A stretch of 63,590 bases of DNA, the filler included, from an uncultured Gemmatimonadota bacterium (GTDB taxonomy: Bacteria; Blakebacterota; Blakebacteria; Blakebacterales; Blakebacteraceae), in assembly GCA_964576115.1 (NCBI GenBank). It is 22 parts of 22 records of this genome, joined end to end, with 100 filler letters (N's around TTAATTAATTAA, not from the genome) between each part and the next. Parts side by side here need not be neighbours in the genome. Positions count along the whole stretch, not along the records: positions 17,659 to 20,827 come from CAZNUA010000119.1; 21 more parts are not named here. The stretch is one strand, 5' to 3'. Below the pieces are notes generated by a model, which searched no databases, was not told the DNA's origin, and saw only the letters and a list, made by a program, of their open reading frames with translations. Shown here in pieces: positions 9,575 to 39,308 of this stretch; position 1 is the stretch's first letter; every line of letters begins with the position of its first letter. The translations under genes and the position numbers were made by a program.

Positions 9575-10786
9575 TCAGAACGGCCAAACAGCCGGCACAA
9601 GTAACACGATAGCGATGAGGACCATGAAGGTCAGCGGCAGTCCCAGACGCATGTAATCAGTATAGTGGTATCCACCCGGACCGTAGACCATGATGTTGGT
9701 CTGATACCCGATTGGAGTCAGGAACGAGGTTGCTGCAGCCAGAGCCACGGCCATGACGAAGGGCCGGGGATCGAGCCCGAGGTAAGCTGCGGTTGCCACC
9801 GCGATGGGAAACAGCAGCACGGCGGCAGCATTGTTGGTAATGAGCTCGCGCAGCACGACGGTGGCCAGGGCCAGGCCGAGCAGAACCCCGTGCGGACCCA
9901 GGAAACTGAAGGTGCCATTGAGCGACAGAGCGATCTTTTCGGCCAGCCCGCTGGTTTCTACCGCCGCCCCGATCCCGAATGCGGCCGCGATGACGATGAT
10001 GACATCGAAGTCGATGGCGCCCCGGGCCTCGGCCGGGGTCAGCACCCCCAGCAAGACCAGCAGGATGCCGGCCAGCAGGGCGGCGTGCAGGATCGGCATC
10101 AGGTTCAGACCGGCGGCGAGTACTACCGCCAGGGTGATGAGACCGACCTGGGTGCTTTTCTTCGTTACCGAGGGCGGTACTCCGCCCATGCGGGAGATCA
10201 GCAGAAAATCCCGTCGGTAGCGCCAGCGGTCGCGAAAGCCGGGATCGGTGAGCAGAATCAGGTTATCACCCACCCGCAGGCGCACCTCGCCCAACTTGCC
10301 AGACACGCGCTCGCCGGCCTGATGGATGGCGATCACGGCCGCCTGGTACTTGCCCCGGAATCCGAGTTCTTTCAGAGTCTTACCGACCAGGGGGGAAGCG
10401 GCTCCAAGCACAGCTTCGAAAAAGGTGTGGTGAGCGGTATCGAACTGGTCAAGGTGCTTGCGTTCGGTCGAGACCAGACCCGGCGTGCCCTGCAGGTCTA
10501 CGACCAGGTCGGCGTTGCCCACGAAGGTGAGCAGATCGCCGCCGCGCAGGACAGTGTCGGGCGAAACCGGAGCGATGGTCTCACCGTTGCGAGCGATCTG
10601 CACCAGGAAGACCCCCTGCAGCTGTCGCAGGTGCCCTTCGGACACCGTCCGGCCGTCGAGTGCGCTGCCTTGTTGCACCTCCATATTGACTGAAAATTCG
10701 CGCTCCGATTCTTCGAGGTCGCGCCGGGCCGGAACGCGCTCGGGCAGCAGGCGGTGGGCGAAAAGGACAATCACGAGCAGACCGCA
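9575..10786 (-). CDS. SLC13/CitMHS-type anion permease with TrkA-C domains, 5'-truncated
   Basis: Two TrkA-C-like segments, ITNNAAA and TPIGYQTNIMVYGPGGY. Confidence 0.9.
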   Translation of the reverse strand, partial: CGLLVIVLFAHRLLPERVPARRDLEESEREFSVNMEVQQGSALDGRTVSEGHLRQLQGVFLVQIARNGETIAPVSPDTVLRGGDLLTFVGNADLVVDLQGTPGLVSTERKHLDQFDTAHHTFFEAVLGAASPLVGKTLKELGFRGKYQAAVIAIHQAGERVSGKLGEVRLRVGDNLILLTDPGFRDRWRYRRDFLLISRMGGVPPSVTKKSTQVGLITLAVVLAAGLNLMPILHAALLAGILLVLLGVLTPAEARGAIDFDVIIVIAAAFGIGAAVETSGLAEKIALSLNGTFSFLGPHGVLLGLALATVVLRELITNNAAAVLLFPIAVATAAYLGLDPRPFVMAVALAAATSFLTPIGYQTNIMVYGPGGYHYTDYMRLGLPLTFMVLIAIVLLVPAVWPF

Positions 10787-10886
10787 NNNNNNNNNNNNNN
10801 NNNNNNNNNNNNNNNNNNNNNNNNNNNNNNTTAATTAATTAANNNNNNNNNNNNNNNNNNNNNNNNNNNNNNNNNNNNNNNNNNNN

Positions 10887-11718: not shown

Positions 11719-14019
<2,301 letters not shown>

Positions 14020-14020
<1 letters not shown>

Positions 14021-14795: not shown

Positions 14796-16906
14796 TGAGC
14801 CACCGGACTTCTTTCCCCTGCCGTGTCTCCTCTCTCTCCTTCTTCCTCTGTATCTCGGGTACCCTCATCCTGCTCGCCGCCTGCACGCGGGTTCCCCGGG
14901 AGGGTTACCCCATCACGCCGGTGCCCTTCGCCGAGGTCGAGGTGCACGACGACTTCTGGTCGCCGCGTCTGGAGACCAACGCCACCGTGACCCTCGATCA
15001 CGTCCTCGATCAGTGCCAGCAGACGGGGCGGCTGGCCAACTTCGACGCCGCCGCGGCGATGATCGAAGCCGGCCGCACGACCGCGGCCGAGCCGGCCGCC
15101 GCCGATGCCGCTGCCATTCCGGGGACGGTGACCGTTGGGCACCAGGGCTATTTCTTCAATGACTCCGATGTGTACAAGATCATCGAGGGGGCGGCCAACT
15201 CGCTGCGCCTGTACCCCGATCCCGGCCTGCAGGCCCGGGTGCAGGAGATCGTGAACCGGATCGCGACGGCCCAGGAACCCGACGGCTACCTCTACACCGC
15301 CCGCACCGCCATGACCCCCAATCACCTCCCCCCCGGGGGCGTCGAGCGCTGGTCGGATGTGCAGTGGGGACACGAGCTATACTGCGCCGGGCACCTGTAC
15401 GAAGGGGCGGTGGCCTGGCACGAGGCCACCGGCGACCGGACCCTGCTCGAGGTCGCGGTGCGCAACGCCGACCTGATCGATGCCGTCTTCGGGCCCGACG
15501 GACGGCGCTATCCGCCGGGGCACGAGCAGATCGAGATGGGGCTGGTGCGGCTCTGGCGGGCCACCGGGCAGGAGCGTTACTTCGATCTGGCCGCCTTCTT
15601 CATCGCCGCCCGCGGCGACTCGACCGGTCACCCCCTTTACGGCGAGTACGCCCAGGACCACAAACCGGTCTCGGAGCAGACCGGGGCCGTCGGGCACGCC
15701 GTACGGGCGGCCTACCTCTACTCAGGCCTGGCCGATGTGGCGGTCGTGACCGGCAGGGCCGGCTACCTGCAGGCTCTGGACCGGATCTGGACCGATGCGG
15801 TCGGCACCAAGCTCTACGTCACCGGCGGGATCGGCGCCACCGGGGGCAACGAGGGTTTCAGTCACCCGTACGTGCTGCCCAACGAGAGCGCTTACTGCGA
15901 GACCTGCGCCTCGATCGCCAACGCCATGTGGAACCACCGCCTGTTCCTGCTCAAAGGTGAGGCCCGCTATCTCGACGTGCTCGAGCGGACCGTCTATAAC
16001 GCCTTTCTGTCCGGGATCTCGCTCACCGGCGATCGCTTCTTCTATCCCAACCGGCTGGCGTCAGCTGAAGGCGCCGAGCGCTCGGCCTGGTTCAACTGCG
16101 CCTGCTGCCCCTCCAACGTGGTGCGCTTTCTGCCCGCCCTGCCCGGTTATGTCTACGCCCACGCCGGCGACAAGCTCTACGTCAACCTCTTCGTTGCCTC
16201 CACCGCCACCGTCCCCCTCGCGGGAGGCCCGGTCCGGATCACCCAGCAGAGCCGCTACCCGTGGAACGGGGTCATCACCGTGCGGCCCGTACCGGCCGAG
16301 GCGGGGCAGCGCTTCACCCTCAACCTCCGCTGCCCCGGCTGGGCGCAGAACGAGGTGGTTCCGAGCGATCTCTACCGCTTCACCGACACCTTCGAGGTCC
16401 AACCGGCCCTGTTCGTCAACGGCGAGCGGCAGCCCCTGCGCCTGCACCACGGGTTCATCCGCATCCGGCGGGCCTGGCAGGAGGGCGACGAGGTCAAACT
16501 GCTGCTGCCGATGCCGATCCGCCGGATCACCGCTCACCAGGCGGTCGAAGCCGACCGCGGCCGGGTGGCCCTGCAGCAGGGGCCGATCGTCTACTGCCTG
16601 GAGGCGGTCGATACCGACAACATCACCGTCGGCGATTTCGTCCTGCCCCCCGAAGCCGGCCTGAGATCGGAGTTCGTGGTCGACCTGCTGGGCGGGGCGC
16701 AGGTCATCCACGGCCGGGGTCTCTCGACCCGCCGGGGGATAGACGGCACCACCATCGAGGAGCGCCCGGTGGCCTTCACGGCCATCCCCTATCATCTCTG
16801 GGCCCACCGCAGCCGACTGCCGATGCAGGTCTGGCTGGCCGCCTCACCCGGCGCGGCCGAGCCGCTGTCAGCCACGGCCGACTCCACGACGGGAAACCAC
16901 CACTGA
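14795..16906 (+). CDS. GH127 beta-L-arabinofuranosidase-like lipoprotein
   Basis: DSDVYK, HELYCAGH, GHAVRA, YCETCA and CACCP motifs; lipobox LAAC. Confidence 0.93.
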   Translation: MSHRTSFPCRVSSLSFFLCISGTLILLAACTRVPREGYPITPVPFAEVEVHDDFWSPRLETNATVTLDHVLDQCQQTGRLANFDAAAAMIEAGRTTAAEPAAADAAAIPGTVTVGHQGYFFNDSDVYKIIEGAANSLRLYPDPGLQARVQEIVNRIATAQEPDGYLYTARTAMTPNHLPPGGVERWSDVQWGHELYCAGHLYEGAVAWHEATGDRTLLEVAVRNADLIDAVFGPDGRRYPPGHEQIEMGLVRLWRATGQERYFDLAAFFIAARGDSTGHPLYGEYAQDHKPVSEQTGAVGHAVRAAYLYSGLADVAVVTGRAGYLQALDRIWTDAVGTKLYVTGGIGATGGNEGFSHPYVLPNESAYCETCASIANAMWNHRLFLLKGEARYLDVLERTVYNAFLSGISLTGDRFFYPNRLASAEGAERSAWFNCACCPSNVVRFLPALPGYVYAHAGDKLYVNLFVASTATVPLAGGPVRITQQSRYPWNGVITVRPVPAEAGQRFTLNLRCPGWAQNEVVPSDLYRFTDTFEVQPALFVNGERQPLRLHHGFIRIRRAWQEGDEVKLLLPMPIRRITAHQAVEADRGRVALQQGPIVYCLEAVDTDNITVGDFVLPPEAGLRSEFVVDLLGGAQVIHGRGLSTRRGIDGTTIEERPVAFTAIPYHLWAHRSRLPMQVWLAASPGAAEPLSATADSTTGNHH

Positions 16907-16928: not shown

Positions 16929-17558
16929 ATGAGGACACCTATCGTACCACTCGCCGCGGGCGCCCTCCTGCTCGTGGCGGGAACCCTCCTGCTCGTCCCG
17001 GCTCCTGCCGCAGCCCAGCAGCCCCTCTTCGACGAGTGGTTCGAGGACGCCACCATGCGGGTGGACTTCCACCAGACCGGCAACGCCGAGGAGTTCTTCT
17101 TCTCGATCGACCAGATGTACCGACAGGGCCGCTGGGCGGGCAACCCCCGCCGCCCGGTGGACGATTTCAACAGCGGCATGTACTACGTCAAGGTCTACAG
17201 CCTGGCTTCGAACCGGCTCATCTATGCCCGTGGTTTCCAGACCCTGTTCGGCGAGTACCAGACCACCGACCCGGCCATCGACGGCGTCATGCGTTCCTAC
17301 CTGCAGACCGCCCTCATCCCCTGGCCGAAGGCGGCGGTGCGCTTCGTGATCGAAGGCCGGGGGCCGGGCAACCTGCTGGTACCGCTGTTCAGCGCCCGAA
17401 TCGATCCGGGCGATGTGAACATCGTCCGCGAAGCATCGGACGAACGGATCGAGGTGTTCGAGATCGAGATCGGCGGCGACTGTCACGACATGGTCGACTT
17501 CGCCCTGGTGGCCGAGGGGTACACCGCGGCCGAGAAGGAGAAGTTCCGGGCCGATGCG
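16929..17558 (+). CDS. M64 (IgA peptidase-like) metallopeptidase, 3'-truncated
   Basis: Signal peptide, TMRVDFHQTG N-terminal domain, VAEGYTAAEKEKF start of the M64 domain. Confidence 0.82.
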
Positions 17559-17658: not shown

Positions 17659-17909
17659 GGGGGCGGGTGGCGCTGCTTTTTCTCGGCCGGGCGGGCCGGC
17701 TCGTTCTGCCCGGTCTGGTGGTCGGCCTGGGCGGCACCCTGGCCCTGGCCCGGGTTCTGGGCAGCATGGTTTTCGGGATCGGCGCCCTGAATCCCCTGAT
17801 TCTGACCGCCACGGCCGGAGTGATGGTCGCGGTGGCGCTGGCGGCGACGGCTCTGCCGGTCCGGCGGGCCACGGGTGTGGATCCACTCGCGGTCCTGCGG
17901 GCGGAATAA
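17659..17909 (+). CDS. C-terminus of ADOP-like ABC permease (copy A)
   Basis: PVRRATGVDPLAVLRAE terminus. Confidence 0.85.
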
Positions 17910-18020: not shown

Positions 18021-18059
18021 TACGAAGAAAATCGTAGACTATACGAAACTATTCGTATA
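18021..18059. promoter_or_regulatory. Tandem putative BlaI operators: TACGA-N6-TCGTA and TATACGAA-N4-TTCGTATA
   Basis: Two inverted repeats 21 bp apart, just upstream of the BlaI RBS; arms conserved in copy B. Confidence 0.8.
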
Positions 18060-18092
18060 TACTCTCGTAGAGTTCTTCACGGAGGGCACGCA

Positions 18093-18503
18093 ATGGCACG
18101 TACACCGAGCACCAGACCGACCGACGCCGAACTGGCGATCCTGCAGATTCTCTGGCAGCGGGGGCCGAGCACGGTCCGCGCCGTGCACGAGGATCTGGGG
18201 CGGACCACCGGTACGGGCTACACCACGGTTCTGAAAACGATGCAGATCATGTTCGAGAAAGGCCTCGTGGAACGAGACGAGTCGCAGCGGGCGCACATCT
18301 ACACCCCCGCCCGACCGGCCGAGGAGATGCAGCGCTCGCTGGTGCACGATCTGGCCGATCGCGCTTTCGAGGGTTCGGCCGCCCGGCTGGTGATGCAGGC
18401 TCTGTCATCCGAGCGCGCCTCGGCCGAAGAGCTGGCTGAGATCCGGCGCTACCTCGACGGGCTCGAATCACAGGCCCGGGAAGACAGGGAGTCTTCGGGC
18501 TGA
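18093..18503 (+). CDS. BlaI/MecI/CopY-family repressor (copy A)
   Basis: PTDAELAILQILW..GPSTVR.VH...GYTTVLKTMQIMFEKGLV...AHIY. Confidence 0.95.
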   Translation: MARTPSTRPTDAELAILQILWQRGPSTVRAVHEDLGRTTGTGYTTVLKTMQIMFEKGLVERDESQRAHIYTPARPAEEMQRSLVHDLADRAFEGSAARLVMQALSSERASAEELAEIRRYLDGLESQAREDRESSG

Positions 18504-20827
18504 TGTTCCCGGGTCTGGCCGGCATCTTCAGAACCCTGATTCTGCCCGTCACGTGGGGCCTGCTCCACTTCATCTGGCAGGGGGCTCTGGTAGCGCTTCT
18601 GCTGGGCGGCCTGCTCCTGATCCTGAAACGAAGCCGGCCCCAGCTGCGCTACCTGCTCAGCTGTACCGCCCTGCTGCTCATGATCGTCCTGCCGATCGTC
18701 ACCGCCCTGCAGCACATCCAACCGCTCGCAGTTGACGAGAGTGGATTGCTACTGCTGGGGGATGAAACCGATCTCGGGCTCGTACAGGCGGAAACCGGGG
18801 CCGAACGCGCGCTCGCCGAGAGCCCGATCACCCGACCGACCGAGGGCGACCTGGCGACGGAGCCGGCGAGTGACGACCGAAGCCGCGCGGTGCCCTGGCT
18901 GGTGCGCACCCGGCTCTTCACGCTTCTGCCCGGGCCCGATTCGTTCATGATCATCTTCATGCTCTGGTTCACCGGCGTGATCGTCTTCGGGTTCGTCCAC
19001 CTGCTTGGCTGGCGGCGGGTGCATCACCTGGCCCACCACGGTACCTCGCCCCTGCCCGAGAACTGGTCCGAAACGGTCGCCGAACTCACCGCCCGGCTGC
19101 ACAACGTGGGCCGGGTGCGCGTGGTGCAGTCGGCTCTGGCCGCCGTACCGACCGTGATCGGCTGGCTGCGTCCGGTGATCCTCGTACCGGTCAGCGCCTT
19201 TACCGGCCTCGACCCCGAACACCTGCGGGCGATTCTGGCCCACGAACTGGCCCACGTGCAGCGTTTCGACTACCTGGTCAACCTGCTCCAGGTGGGCGCC
19301 GAAACCGTGCTCTTCTACCACCCCGCCGTCTGGTGGGTCTCGCGGCGGATCCGCCGCGAACGCGAACTGTGCTGCGACGATATCGCCGTCGCCCTGTGCG
19401 GTGACCGTCTGCTCTACGCCCGGGCGCTGCTCACGCTCGAAGAGCTGCAGCCCGATCCGCGGCCTGCTCTGGCCGCCACGGGCGGCTCGGTCACCGAACG
19501 CATTCACCGTCTTCTGGGAGGTATTCCCATGTCCGCACGACATCGTACCCGACCGTATCTGGCCGGACTCGTCCTGGTTTCGACCCTGCTGCTCGGTTGC
19601 TCGGTACTGGCTCTGGAAGCCGATGCCACTACCCGCCGGGCCGACGACCAGACCGCCCAGGCGTCCGCAGTGCCGCCTGTTCCGAGCGTTCCCCCTCCGG
19701 CGTCGACGGCCGAGGTGCCGGCCGTCCCCCCACCCGCCACCTGGCAGGGTAGCGAGCAGGAGCCGTGGCAGGGCCGGTGGGAGATCCACACCGGCGAGAA
19801 CGGCGTGCACCTCCAGCTGCGCTACGGTCCCGAGGGCGAGCGCGAGAGCGGTTGGGGCACTGCGATTGCCGAGAACCGTTTTACCGGTCTGGAGTACAGC
19901 GACCGGGACGAGTTCGAACTGCGCGCCGAGGCCGGCACCATAAGTTTCACCGGCACCTTCTCCCGTACCCAATGGGGCCATGAGGGCGCCGGCACCTATA
20001 CCTTCAGCCCCAATCGCGATTTCCCCCGTAGTCTGGAGCGTCTGGGAATCGGCGACGTGCGCGACCGCCACCTGCTGGGCTATGCCATGGGCGGGGTCAC
20101 GCTCGAGATGGTGCGCGGCGTACAGGATCAGGGGTACCGCGACCTGGATGCCGACGAAGTGATGGAGATGTCCATCTTCAAGGTCACGCCCGCCTTCATC
20201 CGCGAGCTGCAGCAGCTCGGCTACCGGGATCTGTCTTTCCGGAGTCTGGTCGAATTCCGCATCCACGGCGTGACCCCCGAGTACATCCGCGAGATGGGCC
20301 GTCACGGGTTCGAACTGGACGAGCGGGGGCTGGTCGAGTTCCGCATTCACGGCGTGAATCCCGAGTTCATGCGCGAGATGGCCGGACTGGGCTACCGCGA
20401 TCTGGGTTCGCGTCAACTGGTCGAGTTCCGTATCCACGGCGTGACCCCCGAGTTCGTGCGGGCTCTCAGCGAACTGGACTACAGCAATCTCGACGCCCGC
20501 CAGCTGGTCGAATTCCGCATTCACGGGGTGACCCCCGAGTTCATCCGGGGCCTGCAGCGCGACGGGTATGAGGATCTCACTCCCCGCCGGCTGGTGGAGT
20601 ACCGCATTCACGGTGTGAGTCCCGAATATGCCCGCGAGATGGAGCGCAGCGGCGTGGAAGGGGTGGACCGGGACGACCTGGTCGAGTTCCGCATCCACGG
20701 GGTGACCCCGGAGTTCGTCAGCGCTCTGGCCGAGCTCGGCTACACCGACCTGTCGGGTCGCGATCTGATCGAGTTCCGCATCCACGGGGTGAGCGCCGAG
20801 TACGTGCGCGGTCTGAACGGTATGGGC
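18503..20827 (+). CDS. M56 (BlaR1-like) membrane metallopeptidase with C-terminal tandem-repeat extracytoplasmic domain (copy A), 3'-truncated
   Basis: LLHFIWQG, HELAH (HExxH), FYHPAVWW, ERELCCD; TGATG coupling to blaI. Confidence 0.93.
20069..20827 (+). repeat. ~29-aa (87-nt) coding repeat, at least 9 units, consensus LVEFRIHGVTPEF/YIRxLxxxGYxDL
   Basis: Seven units contain RIHGV, plus two degenerate leading units; array runs to the contig end. Confidence 0.95.
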
Positions 20828-20979
20828 NNNNNNNNNNNNNNNNNNNNNNNNNNNNNNNNNNNNNNNNNNNNTTAATTAATTAANNNNNNNNNNNNNNNNN
20901 NNNNNNNNNNNNNNNNNNNNNNNNNNNGGTGCGATGAGTTCTTGTCGCTGTTCCTCCGAAGGCGTTGATTGCCTCTGTC

Positions 20980-21960
20980 ATGCGTTACGTATTCGGACCC
21001 GTTTTCTCCCGCCGTCTGGGACAATCCCTGGGGGTCGATCCGATCCCGCAGAAGACCTGCAACTGGAACTGTGTCTACTGTCAGCTGGGACGGACCACCC
21101 CGATGACCAACGAGATCGCCGAGTGGGTCCCGGCCGAGGAAATCGTGGACCAGGTCGAGGCCGCGGTCACCGCGGCCGGCCCGGGGGGGGTCGACTGGGT
21201 GACTTTCGTGGGTTCGGGGGAACCCACCCTGCACGTCCGGATCGGGTGGATGATCACAGAGGTGAACAGGCGGACCGGTATTCCGGTCGCCGTCATTACC
21301 AACGGTTCCCTTCTCTGGCGGCCCGAGGTGCGGACCGCACTTGCCGCCGCCGACGCGGTTCTGCCCAGCCTCGATGCGGGCAGTCCCGAACTGTACCGGA
21401 AGGTCAATCGGCCTCACCCCGAGATCACCTTCGAGCGGCTCGTCGAAGGTCTCGAGGCTTTCCGGAAGGAATACTCCGGCCGGCTCTGGATCGAAACGGT
21501 TCTGGTCGAAGGGCTCAACGACACCGAGGAAGCCCTGCGCGACCTGGCTGTCGTGCTGGAACGGATCGGTCCCGACGAGGTCCACGTCAACGTTCCTAAC
21601 CGTCCCCCGGCCGAAACCTGGGTTCGACCGGCCGGTGAAGAAGGGCTGCTTCGGGCGGCGGCGATCCTCGGGGATGTGGCCCGCATCGTGCATTCCGAGA
21701 GCGGCCGGCACAATCTCGATGGATATACCGATGTGGTGGAGGCCATCCTCGACATCATCAGCCGGCACCCGATGCGCGAGGACGAACTGATCCGAACGCT
21801 CGAAGAGTATTTCCCCGGCCAGGCCGAGAGTGCCCTGGAAAAGCTCCGGACCAGCGGTCGGGCCCACCTGGTGGAGCGGGTCGGTACCCGTTTCTGGAGT
21901 GGTGCGGAAGGGTACTACCCCGACCAGCCCGGCGACGATTCAGACGATCGGGACGGTTAA
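20980..21960 (+). CDS. Radical SAM protein (TYW1/COG0731-like, function unknown)
   Basis: YVFGPV.SRRLG.SLG, CNWNCVYC (CxxxCxxC), GSGEPTL, ITNGSLL. Confidence 0.92.
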   Translation: MRYVFGPVFSRRLGQSLGVDPIPQKTCNWNCVYCQLGRTTPMTNEIAEWVPAEEIVDQVEAAVTAAGPGGVDWVTFVGSGEPTLHVRIGWMITEVNRRTGIPVAVITNGSLLWRPEVRTALAAADAVLPSLDAGSPELYRKVNRPHPEITFERLVEGLEAFRKEYSGRLWIETVLVEGLNDTEEALRDLAVVLERIGPDEVHVNVPNRPPAETWVRPAGEEGLLRAAAILGDVARIVHSESGRHNLDGYTDVVEAILDIISRHPMREDELIRTLEEYFPGQAESALEKLRTSGRAHLVERVGTRFWSGAEGYYPDQPGDDSDDRDG

Positions 21961-22729: not shown

Positions 22730-23194
22730 ATGCGAATCGCGGTTCCCGCCGAAGGTGACGGCGGTCTACAGAGTACGGTCAGCCATCATTTCGGGCGCTG
22801 TCCGTTCTTCGTCATTGTCGAGATCGCCGATGTGGAGCAGGGGCGTATCGGTACCGTCGAGCGGGCCGATAACCCGTTCTATGGCGCCCACCAGCCGGGC
22901 GAAGTGCCCGGCTTCATCCACAGCCAGGGAGTCGACCTGATGCTGGTGGGGGGCATGGGCCAGCGGGCGATCGCGTATTTCAACCGCTTCGGGATCGAGG
23001 TGTGCAGCGGTGCCGCCGGCAACGTTCAGGAGGCCGTGCAGGCCTGGCTCGACGGGCATCTGTCGGGTTTTGAACCATGTGCCGAAAGTAAGCAACATGC
23101 CGGGCATCACTCTCACCGGCATCACGATCATCCCCACCACGGATCCGAGTCCCGGGGCCCGGGTCGTGGATCAGGGCAGAGGAGAGAACCGTGA
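22730..23194 (+). CDS. NifB/NifX-family (FeMo-co-binding-like) protein with His-rich tail
   Basis: MRIAVP...HFGRCPFF...GGMG.RA; tail HAGHHSHRHHDHPHH. Confidence 0.9.
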   Translation: MRIAVPAEGDGGLQSTVSHHFGRCPFFVIVEIADVEQGRIGTVERADNPFYGAHQPGEVPGFIHSQGVDLMLVGGMGQRAIAYFNRFGIEVCSGAAGNVQEAVQAWLDGHLSGFEPCAESKQHAGHHSHRHHDHPHHGSESRGPGRGSGQRREP

Positions 23195-23529
23195 TTCTCG
23201 TCATTCCCGTTTCCAATCCCGACAACCCGGCCGAGGTGGACGACCGCTTCGGCCGGGCAGCCGGTTTCGTCGTCATCGATACCGAGAAACAAAGCCGTTC
23301 GGCGATATCGAATCCGGCGATCTCGGAACCGAGCGGGGCGGGTGTCAAGGCCGCCCGTCTGGTCCTCGACAGCGGTGCCGATGCGGTGGCTGCAAATTAT
23401 GTCGGGCCGAAAGCGGAACAGATCCTCAGAAGTGGCAAGGTGGAGATCTTCAACCTTCCGCCGGGCGATCTGACCGTCGAGCGTGCCCTCGAACTCTTTA
23501 CGGCCGGCGAGCTTCCCCGACAGGGGTAG
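23191..23529 (+). CDS. Second NifB/NifX-family protein
   Basis: RFGRAAGF...NPA....GAGVKAA...VGPKA. Confidence 0.88.
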   Translation: MILVIPVSNPDNPAEVDDRFGRAAGFVVIDTEKQSRSAISNPAISEPSGAGVKAARLVLDSGADAVAANYVGPKAEQILRSGKVEIFNLPPGDLTVERALELFTAGELPRQG

Positions 23530-36824: not shown

Positions 36825-36863
36825 TACGAAATAAATCGTAGATTATACGAAACCATTCGTATA
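36825..36863. promoter_or_regulatory. Tandem putative BlaI operators (copy B)
   Basis: TACGAAATAAATCGTA and TATACGAAACCATTCGTATA. Confidence 0.8.
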
Positions 36864-36896
36864 TACTCGTGTAGAGTTCTTCTCGGAGGGCACGCA

Positions 36897-37307
36897 ATGG
36901 CACGTACACCGAGCACCAGACCGACCGACGCCGAGCTGGCGATCCTGCAGATTCTCTGGCAGCGGGGGCCGAGCACGGTCCGCGCCGTGCACGAGGATCT
37001 GGGGCGGACCACCGGTACGGGCTACACCACGGTTCTGAAAACGATGCAGATCATGTTCGAGAAAGGCCTCGTGGAACGAGACGAGTCGCAGCGGGCGCAC
37101 ATCTACACCCCCGCCCGACCGGCCGAGGAGATGCAGCGCTCGCTGGTGCACGATCTGGCCGATCGCGCTTTCGAGGGTTCGGCTGCCCGGCTGGTGATGC
37201 AGGCACTGTCATCCGAGCGCGCCTCGGCCGAAGAGCTGGCCGAGATCCGGCGCTACCTCGAGGCGCTCGAAGCGGGAGAACAGGACACCGCGGGGAACCC
37301 GGGCTGA
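36897..37307 (+). CDS. BlaI/MecI/CopY-family repressor (copy B)
   Basis: Protein identical to copy A except the C-terminal tail. Confidence 0.95.
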   Translation: MARTPSTRPTDAELAILQILWQRGPSTVRAVHEDLGRTTGTGYTTVLKTMQIMFEKGLVERDESQRAHIYTPARPAEEMQRSLVHDLADRAFEGSAARLVMQALSSERASAEELAEIRRYLEALEAGEQDTAGNPG

Positions 37308-39308
37308 TGTTCCCCGGCCTGGCCGGCATCTTCAGGACCCTGATCCTGCCCGTCACGTGGGGCCTGCTCCACTTCATCTGGCAGGGGGCCCTGGTGGCGC
37401 TTCTGCTGGGCGGCCTGCTCCTGATCCTGAGGCGCAGCCGGCCCCAGGTGCGCTATCTGGTCAGCTGTGCCGCCCTGCTGCTCATGATCGTCCTGCCGAT
37501 CGTGACCGCCCTGCAGCATGTCGAGCCTCTCAACACCGATGACGGCCGGCTCATGGCGGCTGAGAAGCGGACCGATCTCGGTCTCACGGAGGCGGCAACC
37601 GGGACCGAAGGCGCAGCCGCCGAAGGTCCGGTCACCGACCGCCCGGACACCCGCCCCACCGACCGCAGCCGGCCGGCCGGGTCGGCCAGCGGCGAGCCGG
37701 AGAGCGAACTGCCCTGGCTGGTGCGCACCCGGCTCTTCACCCTGCTGCCCGGGCCGGATTCATTCGTCATCATCTTTGCCCTCTGGCTGGTCGGGGTGCT
37801 CGCCTTCGGGATCGTTCACCTGCTCGGCTGGCGGCGGGTGCACCACCTGGCCCGGCACGGCCTCTCGCCCCTGCCCGAAGCCTGGGCCGAAACGGTCGCC
37901 GAACTCACCGCCCGGCTGCGGTCGGTGGGCCGGGTGCGGGTGGTGCAGTCGGCTCTGGCCGGCGTGCCGACCGTGATCGGCTGGCTGCGTCCGGTCATCC
38001 TCATCCCGGTCAGCGCCTTCACCGGCCTCGATCCCGAGCACCTGCGGGCGATCGTGGCCCACGAGCTGGCTCACGTGCAGCGCTTCGACTACCTGGTCAA
38101 CCTGCTCCAGGTGGGGGCCGAAACCATACTCTTCTACCACCCCGCCGTCTGGTGGGTCTCGCGGCGGATCCGCCGCGAGCGTGAACTCTGCTGCGACGAC
38201 ATCGCCGTCGCCCTGTGCGGCGACCGCCTGCTGTACACCCGGGCCCTGCTCAGGCTCGAAGAGCTGCGGCCCGATCCGCGGCCCGCTCTGGCCGCCACGG
38301 GTGGATCGCTCGCCGAACGCATTCACCATCTTCTGGGAGGTATCCCCGTGTCCGCACGACCCCGTCCCCGGCCGTATCTGGCCGGACTCGTTCTGGTCTC
38401 GACCCTGCTGCTCGGCTGTTCGGTGATGGCCATCGAAGCCGATGCCGCCGCCCGCCGGGCCGACGATCAGATTCCGCCGGTGACCGCAGTGCCGCCCGTT
38501 CCGCCCCCGCCCTCGCCGGCTGAGGTGCCGACCGGCGCCCCGGGCGCGCCGAACATCCCCGACACCTCCACCGCCCCCGGTGTTCCGACGCCTCCGGGTA
38601 CTCCGATCACGGCGTCCGCTCCGGGTACGCCGACCGTGCCGAACCCTCCCGCTCCCCCCCCATCCGCCATCTGGCAGTCGGGCGGACAGGAGCAGTGGCA
38701 GGGCCGGTGGGAGATCCATACCGGCGAGAACGGCGTGCACCTGCAGCTGCGCTACGGGACCGCGGGCGAGCGCGAAGGCGGCTGGGGCACAACGGTTGCC
38801 GAAAGCCGCTTCACCGGTCTGGAGTACAGCGACCGCGACGAGTTCGAACTGCGCGCCGAGGCCGGCACCATCAGCTTCACCGGTACCTTCTCCCGCACCC
38901 AGTGGGGTCATGAGGGCGCCGGGACCTATACCTTCACCCCGAACCGCGATTTCCCCCGCAGTCTCGGGCGTCTGGGCATCGGCGACGTGGGCGATGAGCA
39001 CCTGCTCGGTTATACCATGGGCGGGGTCACGCTCGAGATGGTGCGCGGCGTGCAGGAACAGGGCTACCGCGACCTGGATGCCGACGACGTGATGGAGATC
39101 GCTATCTTCGACGTCACCCCCGCTTTCATCCGTGAACTGCAGCAGCTCGGGTACCGCGATCTGTCCTTCCAGGGGCTGGTCGAGTTCCGCATCCACGGCG
39201 TGACCCCCGAGTACATCCGCGAGATGAGCGGTCTCGGCTTCGAACTCGACGAGCAGGGGCTGGTCGAGTTCCGCATCCACGGCGTGACCCCCGAGTACAT
39301 CCGCGAGA
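37307..39308 (+). CDS. M56 (BlaR1-like) metallopeptidase with repeat domain (copy B), 3'-truncated
   Basis: HELAH and ERELCCD, longer Pro-rich linker, LVEFRIHGVTPEYIRE repeats. Confidence 0.93.

Follow-up and report, generated by a model that had tools for sequence, protein, structure and literature searches.

A predicted BlaI-M56 regulatory switch with a beta-domain and helical-repeat sensor in an uncultured Gemmatimonadota bacterium

The 63,590-nucleotide stretch of DNA analyzed here (the window), which comes from an uncultured Gemmatimonadota bacterium (assembly GCA_964576115.1), carries a two-gene operon formed by blaI, encoding a transcriptional repressor, and by the gene of an M56 zinc protease. 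The operon promoter is overlapped by two 16-bp dyads, and the protease has four membrane helices and an intact HExxH...E site; the structural model shows, as its C-terminal region, a beta domain that caps an alpha-solenoid of about ten repeats. The module is best read, with a probability of about 0.78, as a non-canonical switch of the BlaI/BlaR1 type, in which the protease cuts the repressor under the control of the beta-domain/solenoid sensor. The protease and repressor parts are of the orthodox BlaR1/BlaI type, as judged from sequence alignments and models. The sensor is a real, selected module, as indicated by its abundance, by a confident model, and by the retention of beta domain and repeats together.

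The blaI gene (18093..18503, + strand) encodes a winged-helix repressor of 136 amino acids of the BlaI/MecI/CopY family (PF03965, 3.4e-28). The match scores 98.8 bits against a gathering cut-off of 22.6, and places residues 10-122 on positions 2-114 of the 115-position profile, covering both the winged-helix and the C-terminal dimerisation parts. The closest solved relative is PDB 2g9w (E 1.9e-13, aligned over residues 7-126), which the PDB record titles a conserved hypothetical protein and which we take to be the M. tuberculosis BlaI; MecI aligns end to end with residues 10-121. A ribosome-binding site, GGAGGG, can be read 6 nt 5' of the ATG (18081..18086, + strand), and the TGA stop of blaI shares one base, at 18503, with the ATG of the M56 gene (TGATG). 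The same order is found in relatives, blaI lying directly upstream of the M56 gene in 79 of 80 M56 loci, and in all 30 loci with a repeat sensor.

The M56 reading frame starts at 18503 and stays open to the contig end, for 775 amino acids (PF05569, 4.8e-28). According to the PF05569 match, to the alignment with the BlaR1 structures 8exp/8exs, and to AlphaFold2 helices, the N-terminal part (aa 1-385; 18503..19657, + strand) comprises transmembrane helices TM1 and TM2, a disordered outer loop (76-139), TM3, a cytoplasmic gluzincin domain and TM4. The full-length AlphaFold2 model (mean pLDDT 83.5) features long helices at 2-40, 46-70, 145-178 and 351-385, a well-ordered domain between the third and the fourth, and disordered segments at 76-139 and 385-418. 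The zinc site is made up by HELAH (aa 247-251; nt 19241-19255) and E288; H247, H251 and E288 align with His201, His205 and Glu242 of S. aureus BlaR1, which are zinc ligands according to the available part of PMC9834060, and H247, E248, H251, E288 and D292 are invariant across 42 aligned homologues. Searched with Foldseek against the PDB, the full-length model finds as best matches the cryo-EM structures of S. aureus BlaR1 (8exs_A, E 1.5e-5), 8exr_A superposing with a TM-score of 0.61 and an rmsd of 4.4 A over 180 columns. The HExxH...E gluzincin set in a four-helix membrane scaffold, typical of BlaR1/MecR1, is thus present.

The likeness to BlaR1 stops at the sensor. The BlaR1/MecR1 family model NF000326, which includes a C-terminal penicillin-binding sensor, reaches 75.4 bits where 400 are required, and aligns over profile positions 105-253 of 585 only. 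What lies beyond the contig end is shown by protein P0004 (825 aa), found in a collection of 5.8 billion proteins: its first 775 residues are identical to the window's protein, and the 50 that follow form a further repeat and a short tail. A penicillin-binding domain hidden in the missing end is therefore excluded, and no penicillin-binding, transpeptidase or beta-lactamase-like family was matched either by the window's protein or by full-length P0004.

The region following TM4 is made up by three parts. A Pro-rich linker (aa 386-421; 19658..19765, + strand) is predicted to be disordered (pLDDT <50 for aa 385-418). It is followed by a six-stranded beta domain beginning with GxW (aa 422-503; 19766..20011, + strand), in which AlphaFold2 strands are mostly modelled at pLDDT >90, and which was detected in 185 of 250 homologues by a hidden Markov model (HMM) built in this analysis. 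The third part is an array of 29-residue, two-helix repeats (aa 506-775; 20018..20827, + strand), cut by the contig end with 50 residues missing, on which motif, tandem-repeat, HMM and AlphaFold2 evidence agree: in the model the strands give way to pairs of 9-residue helices, which continue to the protein end. Eight canonical LVEFRIHGV units and a degenerate one (starting at 553) are found in the window, and another, weaker still, can be made out by eye only at about residues 521-549; the array of the full-length protein counts nine HMM-detected units and a C-terminal half unit. The array is seen at the DNA level too (period 87 nt, 3.5 copies, score 258). Modelled with an alignment of 70 sequences, the sensor region reaches pLDDT 95.9 and pTM 0.86. 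The Pro-rich stalk was considered as a family feature and rejected: the 83 aa that separate the M56 match from the beta domain, TM4 included, are 16% Pro, against a family median of only 5.5%.

A set of 2530 repeats from 250 proteins (median 8 per protein, range 3-14) gave the consensus DDLVEFRIHGVTPEYIRELKELGYKDL. The strongest columns are G23 (98%), H9 (88%), I8 (82%), L27 (82%) and V11 (77%). The His occupies the last position of helix A, directly before a G-V-T/S-P turn, and the T/S-P-E following the turn looks like a helix N-cap. The Glu is conserved in 27% of the repeats only, and the Arg position is Arg in 36% and Lys in 32%. In the relative L012, in which the sensor is split over two proteins, the His is replaced by Gln in the repeats of the M56 protein, and mostly by Phe in those of the secreted partner. 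As the conserved residues belong to the core and the turn, and the His gives way to Gln or Phe in L012, a structural role of the motif fits better than a role in ligand contact. The same replacements disfavour a ladder of His residues working as a metal or pH site.

These results bear out most of what the preliminary description of this DNA had derived from the sequence alone. PF03965, PF05569 and the one-base overlap substantiate the coupling of BlaI to an M56 protease with HELAH; the motif counts and the AlphaFold2 models confirm the succession of hydrophobic helix, Pro-rich linker, beta-rich domain and at least nine repeats of about 29 aa, and family matches and models support the idea of a protease switch with a helical solenoid outside the membrane. 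Its statement that a penicillin-binding sensor is lacking holds also for P0004, identical over the shared residues. Two findings were named as fatal to the idea, a repeat belonging to a characterised family with a known ligand, and a normal transpeptidase sensor encoded by the missing 3' end; neither came up, the repeat matching no characterised family and the 3' end coding for further repeat only. The proposal that E-x-R-x-H residues may line a ligand groove is not supported by the repeat statistics given above.

Searches with residues 424-775 retrieved no Pfam or NCBIfam family, and no sequence in the PDB (best E-value 0.84). The helix-hairpin-helix (HhH) family PF14520, the UBA family PF00627 and other small helical-motif families were not matched in the window's protein at E<=0.1. 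In ten homologues Pfam returned incoherent weak sums, for families varying from protein to protein, nearly all rows having 0 passing stretches and a few a short one. Hits in the ESM Atlas were confined to unnamed Acidobacteriota clusters (0.91-0.92), or to clusters titled by spurious Pfam sums, at a recognition value of 1439, under the 2300 mark of the tool.

The sensor is nonetheless widespread in databases. At least 2329 proteins containing the sensor region were found at E<=1e-3 among 8000 candidates scored; among representatives of 50%-identity clusters, 3618 reached E<=1e-3 and 798 reached E<=1e-30. Source names include Acidobacteriota, Bacteroidota (Aquimarina, Lewinella), Zixibacteria and Krumholzibacteria, and homologues are also listed for 'Acidobacteria bacterium Mor1'; a search of genome loci with a single protein as query adds one record labelled Gemmatimonadota (L001, the nearest locus, 65% identity) and another labelled Eisenbacteria. 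The nearest genome (G005, labelled uncultured Gemmatimonadota) is the sole carrier among nine species genomes of its phylum group, a small set. An M56 N-terminus is found in 130 of the best 150 of the 3618 representatives; the other 20 have no M56 part, and mostly start with a signal-peptide-like N-terminus. Ten M56-less homologues (nine of these 20 and P0045) were scanned, and no recognizable signalling domain was found in them; one of the ten starts with a Ham1 domain, which may stem from two genes called as one.

Fused and split versions of the sensor can be distinguished among the 30 repeat-sensor loci. In five the beta domain resides inside the M56 protein, as in the window. In 19 it resides on a separate signal-peptide protein with 3-7 repeats, encoded directly downstream of the M56 gene and often overlapping the M56 stop with its start codon, and the M56 protein then carries repeats only. 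No beta domain was found in six loci, three of which end at a contig edge. Split loci are L012 (partner at 10088-10882), L002, L007-L010, L013-L015, L017, L018, L020, L022, L038, L044, L047, L052, L068 and L076. Since beta domain and repeats occur together, either fused or as adjacent genes, the two belong together functionally. The position of the sensor after TM4, and the signal-peptide-like N-termini of M56-less forms and split partners, place the sensor outside the cytoplasmic membrane. A further arrangement was seen in an Acidobacteriota chromosome (L003:7932-11847), where two M56 reading frames lie in tandem and both encode a beta domain; they share about 115 nt, and may result from a frameshift or be a true duplication.

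The split loci give reason to consider that the solenoid is a docking scaffold, the beta domain being the actual ligand-binding piece, and the signal the binding or release of a partner protein. Candidate partners would be the secreted beta-domain paralogue of the split systems, or a protein of the periplasm or the outer membrane, in the way that M56-TonB_C proteins are thought to contact outer-membrane transporters. The 19 loci in which the beta domain is detached fit this account, as do the rank of M56-TonB_C as second most common M56 architecture (PMC13492132) and the weak matches of the beta domain to small ligand-binding beta folds (Bet v 1/ARO-CYC-like, Foldseek E 0.1-0.5; avidin/Alt a 1-like, Z 4.3-4.5), besides which the FI domain of RpfR was retrieved at Z 5.2. 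All fold matches are weak, however, the fused form found in the window has no detachable partner, and L001 has no downstream partner gene, the next gene being convergent. A complex prediction for the L012 M56 solenoid and its secreted partner scored 0.00, and carries no weight either way. On balance a docking scaffold seems unlikely, although it is the alternative that fares best. As for the ligand, the preferred guess is that the solenoid and the beta domain jointly bind a protein or polymer of the periplasm or envelope, which would lie along the solenoid.

The predicted operator bears on what the switch controls. It is made up by two 16-bp dyads of the type TACGAA-N4-TTCGTA, with starts 21 bp apart. 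The first, TACGAAGAAAATCGTA (18021..18036, no strand assigned), overlaps the -35 hexamer, and the second, TACGAAACTATTCGTA (18042..18057, likewise), is perfect and fills the promoter spacer; relatives keep a dyad pair in the same position. The promoter of the blaI-M56 operon is sigma-70-like (TAGACT-17 nt-TATACT; 18035..18063, + strand), and matches 9 of 12 positions, one site being found against 0.1 expected in shuffles. With up to two mismatches allowed, the window has four dyads where 0.51 would be expected; none of 100 shuffles contained as many, and all four reside in front of the two blaI copies which the window contains (see below). Of 79 related blaI loci, 67 have at least one dyad in the 250 bp preceding blaI, as do 29 of the 30 repeat-sensor loci, the sequence of the remaining one beginning 15 bp before blaI; elsewhere in the related loci the site is rare (18 in 1.07 Mb).

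A degenerate tandem-dyad pattern was found exactly once in each of five genomes (3.9-7.7 Mb), always at the BlaI-M56 locus. In the four Acidobacteriota genomes (G001-G004) the consensus -35 hexamer TTGACA lies between the two dyads, which indicates that the overlap of operator and promoter is conserved across phyla. As the dyads overlap the blaI promoter, are kept in relatives and are unique per genome, the module is, as far as sequence can tell, autoregulated. The module itself is the only recognizable direct target, the tandem operator being unique in each genome; further targets, if any, would have weaker or single sites. The exact single dyad was searched in two genomes, and one site was found besides the module, between the genes of a RecD2 helicase and a UPF0149 protein, probably by chance.

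Because a unique operator leaves the output open, it may be asked whether the product of the module is its own output, derepression yielding more membrane-anchored, and in split systems also secreted, solenoid, which would bind or sequester the inducing envelope component. The uniqueness of the tandem operator in five genomes out of five, the nearly exclusive occurrence of exact single dyads at the operon in both genomes searched, and the co-transcription of the secreted paralogue in split systems would agree with this. Against it, canonical BlaI proteins autoregulate and also control other genes, no binding activity is known for the solenoid, and the search for weaker or single operators elsewhere was not exhaustive. 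We regard sequestration as an improbable account of the operon. Equally speculative is a broader version, according to which beta domain and solenoid form a new class of modular periplasmic receptors, either fused or split, along whose superhelix a linear component of the envelope, either a protein tail or a glycan strand, would be read. As the operator is unique in the genome, BlaI and M56 would form a closed feedback circuit having as main output more receptor or a secreted decoy; the device would sense and sequester instead of switching a separate regulon.

The repeats resemble those of TAL effectors, BurrH, mTERF proteins and designed alpha/alpha toroids in that short two-helix units are stacked into a superhelix. 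The best structural neighbours of the solenoid are the TAL effector 4hpz (Z 8.0) and BurrH 4cj9 (Z 7.9), followed by mTERF (Z 5.0-5.3) and designed toroids, with rmsd values of 12-14 A (12.6 and 13.7 A for TAL effector and BurrH) and Foldseek E-values of 0.1-0.4, all Z-scores falling under the level that the tool calls meaningful for repeat proteins. TAL effector, BurrH and mTERF-type repeats are 33-35 residues long, against 29 here. Unlike these proteins and the toroids, the sensor is acidic, is located outside the cytoplasm, and has no sequence similarity to them, with Z not exceeding 8. The fold likeness is, in the models, that of a generic alpha-solenoid only. Binding of extracellular nucleic acid in the manner of TAL effectors or mTERF, which these neighbours and the sub-threshold HhH-type Pfam sums of homologues might suggest, is very improbable, given the large rmsd, the low Z-scores and the lack of a basic surface, for which the isoelectric point (pI) was taken as a proxy (5.29; homologue median 5.33, with pI >7.5 in only 22 of 185 homologues). 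A cryptic sensor of beta-lactams or cell-wall fragments of the canonical BlaR1 kind, to which only the homology of protease and repressor would point, is just as improbable, as the full-length protein has neither a transpeptidase nor a beta-lactamase-like domain, its NF000326 score lies far under the cut-off (75 vs 400 bits), and no beta-lactamase or penicillin-binding protein (PBP) gene was found among the L001 neighbours scanned.

The cut-the-repressor switch remains the favoured reading. In the BlaR1 paradigm the state of the sensor is relayed to the cytoplasmic gluzincin, which cuts the repressor directly (PMC9834060, in the part available). By analogy with the S. aureus system, a BlaI dimer bound to the dyads would shut off its own operon, until a cue other than a beta-lactam, arriving outside the cytoplasmic membrane, altered the beta-domain/solenoid. 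The cue could displace the disordered outer loop at 76-139, as beta-lactams displace EL1 in BlaR1; the loop is located where EL1 is, and may have a similar competitive role. The change would pass via TM4 to the cytoplasmic protease, BlaI would be cleaved, and the operon derepressed.

Several points weigh against this reading. The signal, the cleavage and the regulon of the module are all things that we infer. The Asn101-Phe102 bond, at which staphylococcal BlaI and MecI are cut (PMC9834060, same part), is not conserved: in the HMMER alignment to MecI the Asn-Phe pair is replaced by Gln-Ala (lvlnf vs lvmqa, the n-f of MecI being taken, by reading of the alignment, as Asn101-Phe102), so that cleavage of BlaI, if any, would occur at another site. 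Neither the tandem-dyad search of five genomes nor the exact single-dyad search of two turned up a second gene with the operator, and the output of the switch thereby goes unexplained. Foldseek against the PDB and VIA-align wide gave no convincing fold neighbour for either sensor domain, nor a clue to the ligand. Finally, neither copy of the M56 gene in the window is complete, a contig end interrupting each of them.

The second copy resides on a separate contig (36423-39308), which shows the same arrangement: the tail of an ADOP permease gene is followed by operators, blaI, and an M56 gene encoding both the beta domain and the repeats. It spans 36825..39308 (+ strand), with dyads at 36825-36840 and 36846-36861, blaI at 36897-37307, and the M56 gene at 37307-39308, broken inside the repeats by the contig end. 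The two copies are 85-88% identical at the DNA level, and 124 of 136 BlaI residues are identical; the Pro-rich linker is longer in the second. This copy is either a paralogue, or stems from a related strain or population in the same bin; the tandem operator is single-copy in the nearest genome.

The window (1-63590) chains about two dozen short contigs (about 1.8-3.5 kb) by runs of N and TTAATTAATTAA stop-codon linkers, and gene neighbourhood is therefore meaningful within a single contig only. The module described here is confined to the 3.2-kb contig at 17659-20827, which contains the tail of an ADOP/FtsX permease gene, blaI and the M56 gene. The permease C-terminus (82 aa, 17661-17909; TIGR03434 1e-16, profile positions 723-803 of 803) lies directly upstream of blaI on the same strand, and this ADOP/MacB-like neighbour had been pointed out in the preliminary description. 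The adjacency is not conserved: only 10 of 30 related loci have an ADOP gene within 8 kb, its position and strand vary, and in the nearest relative L001 it is divergent, not co-directional. Five related genomes have at least 48-56 ADOP matches each, with no more than 53 candidates scored per genome, which makes about one per 70-160 kb or denser. Given this abundance, and adjacency in 10 of 30 loci only, the neighbour is at chance level and uninformative. The adjoining contig encodes a GH127 beta-L-arabinofuranosidase-like protein (14798-16906, 8e-99) and, at 16929-17558, the N-terminal part of a peptidase of the M64 type (3e-31). Among the other contigs, genes were found for enolase (12731-14020), a radical SAM protein (20965-21960) and two Nitro_FeMo-Co domain proteins (22730-23529).

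BlaR-like proteins without a penicillin sensor are a known class; the apparently new part is the sensor module. In the accessible text of PMC13492132, a 2026 survey, from which all statements on it are taken, about 15,000 M56 proteins are considered, of which only about 6% have a transpeptidase domain and about 96% lie near a BlaI gene, the commonest architecture having no identifiable C-terminal domain. The rarity implied by the preliminary description is hence unfounded, M56 proteins without transpeptidase making up about 94% of the some 15,000 InterPro entries. This majority is assumed to sense other cues (PMC13492132; 10.64898/2026.08.03.742534, also from its accessible part). The marks by which the survey delimits non-canonical BlaIR systems, an M56 protein without transpeptidase and a BlaI-like gene within five genes, usually upstream, are found here. 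Systems studied so far are CenIR of C. difficile (PMC13492132) and PvmSR of P. aeruginosa (10.64898/2026.08.03.742534); mycobacterial BlaIR (M. tuberculosis, M. abscessus) is cited in both sources, and PetR/PetP of Synechocystis is listed with the non-canonical BlaIR-family systems (10.1101/2020.07.31.226407, seen in part).

As in the S. aureus BlaI-BlaR1 and MecI-MecR1 systems (8EXP-8EXT; PMC9834060, available part), a winged-helix repressor is found beside a four-helix M56 gluzincin with HExxH...E, the operators overlap the promoter, the outer loop between TM2 and TM3 is long, the sensor lies outside, after TM4, and the folds match. BlaR1 and MecR1 have a class D beta-lactamase-like domain where the beta domain and the 29-residue alpha-solenoid are found here. 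The S. aureus system also differs in that blaI precedes the M56 gene here, the Asn-Phe pair is not conserved, no beta-lactamase or PBP target gene was seen, and the hosts are diderm environmental bacteria. CenIR, PvmSR and mycobacterial BlaIR share with the module an M56 protein without transpeptidase, a BlaI-like repressor, and a signal which is not a beta-lactam; according to the accessible texts, their sensors are short, largely disordered or absent, whereas the one described here has about 400 residues, is confidently folded, has two parts, and occurs in thousands of proteins. M56-TonB_C proteins of diderm bacteria, as far as described in PMC13492132, similarly join an M56 protease by a linker, Pro-rich in the clade found here, to a folded periplasmic C-terminal domain. 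Their C-terminal domain is unrelated, and the Pro-rich linker of the module is not family-wide. No description of the 29-residue repeat sensor was found in open-access full texts; supplements and figures, such as Table S3 and Fig. 7 of PMC13492132, were outside reach and could list the architecture.

By itself the module introduces no new principle, and is not a resistance determinant. Few one-step transmembrane signalling systems are as poorly understood as the BlaR-like proteases, and for part of the unexplained M56 majority the module supplies a sensor domain that is defined, folded with confidence in the model, and very abundant. The conserved operator, and the natural pair of fused and split forms, make it a practical starting point for identifying the cues to which diderm bacteria of soil and sea respond through such systems.

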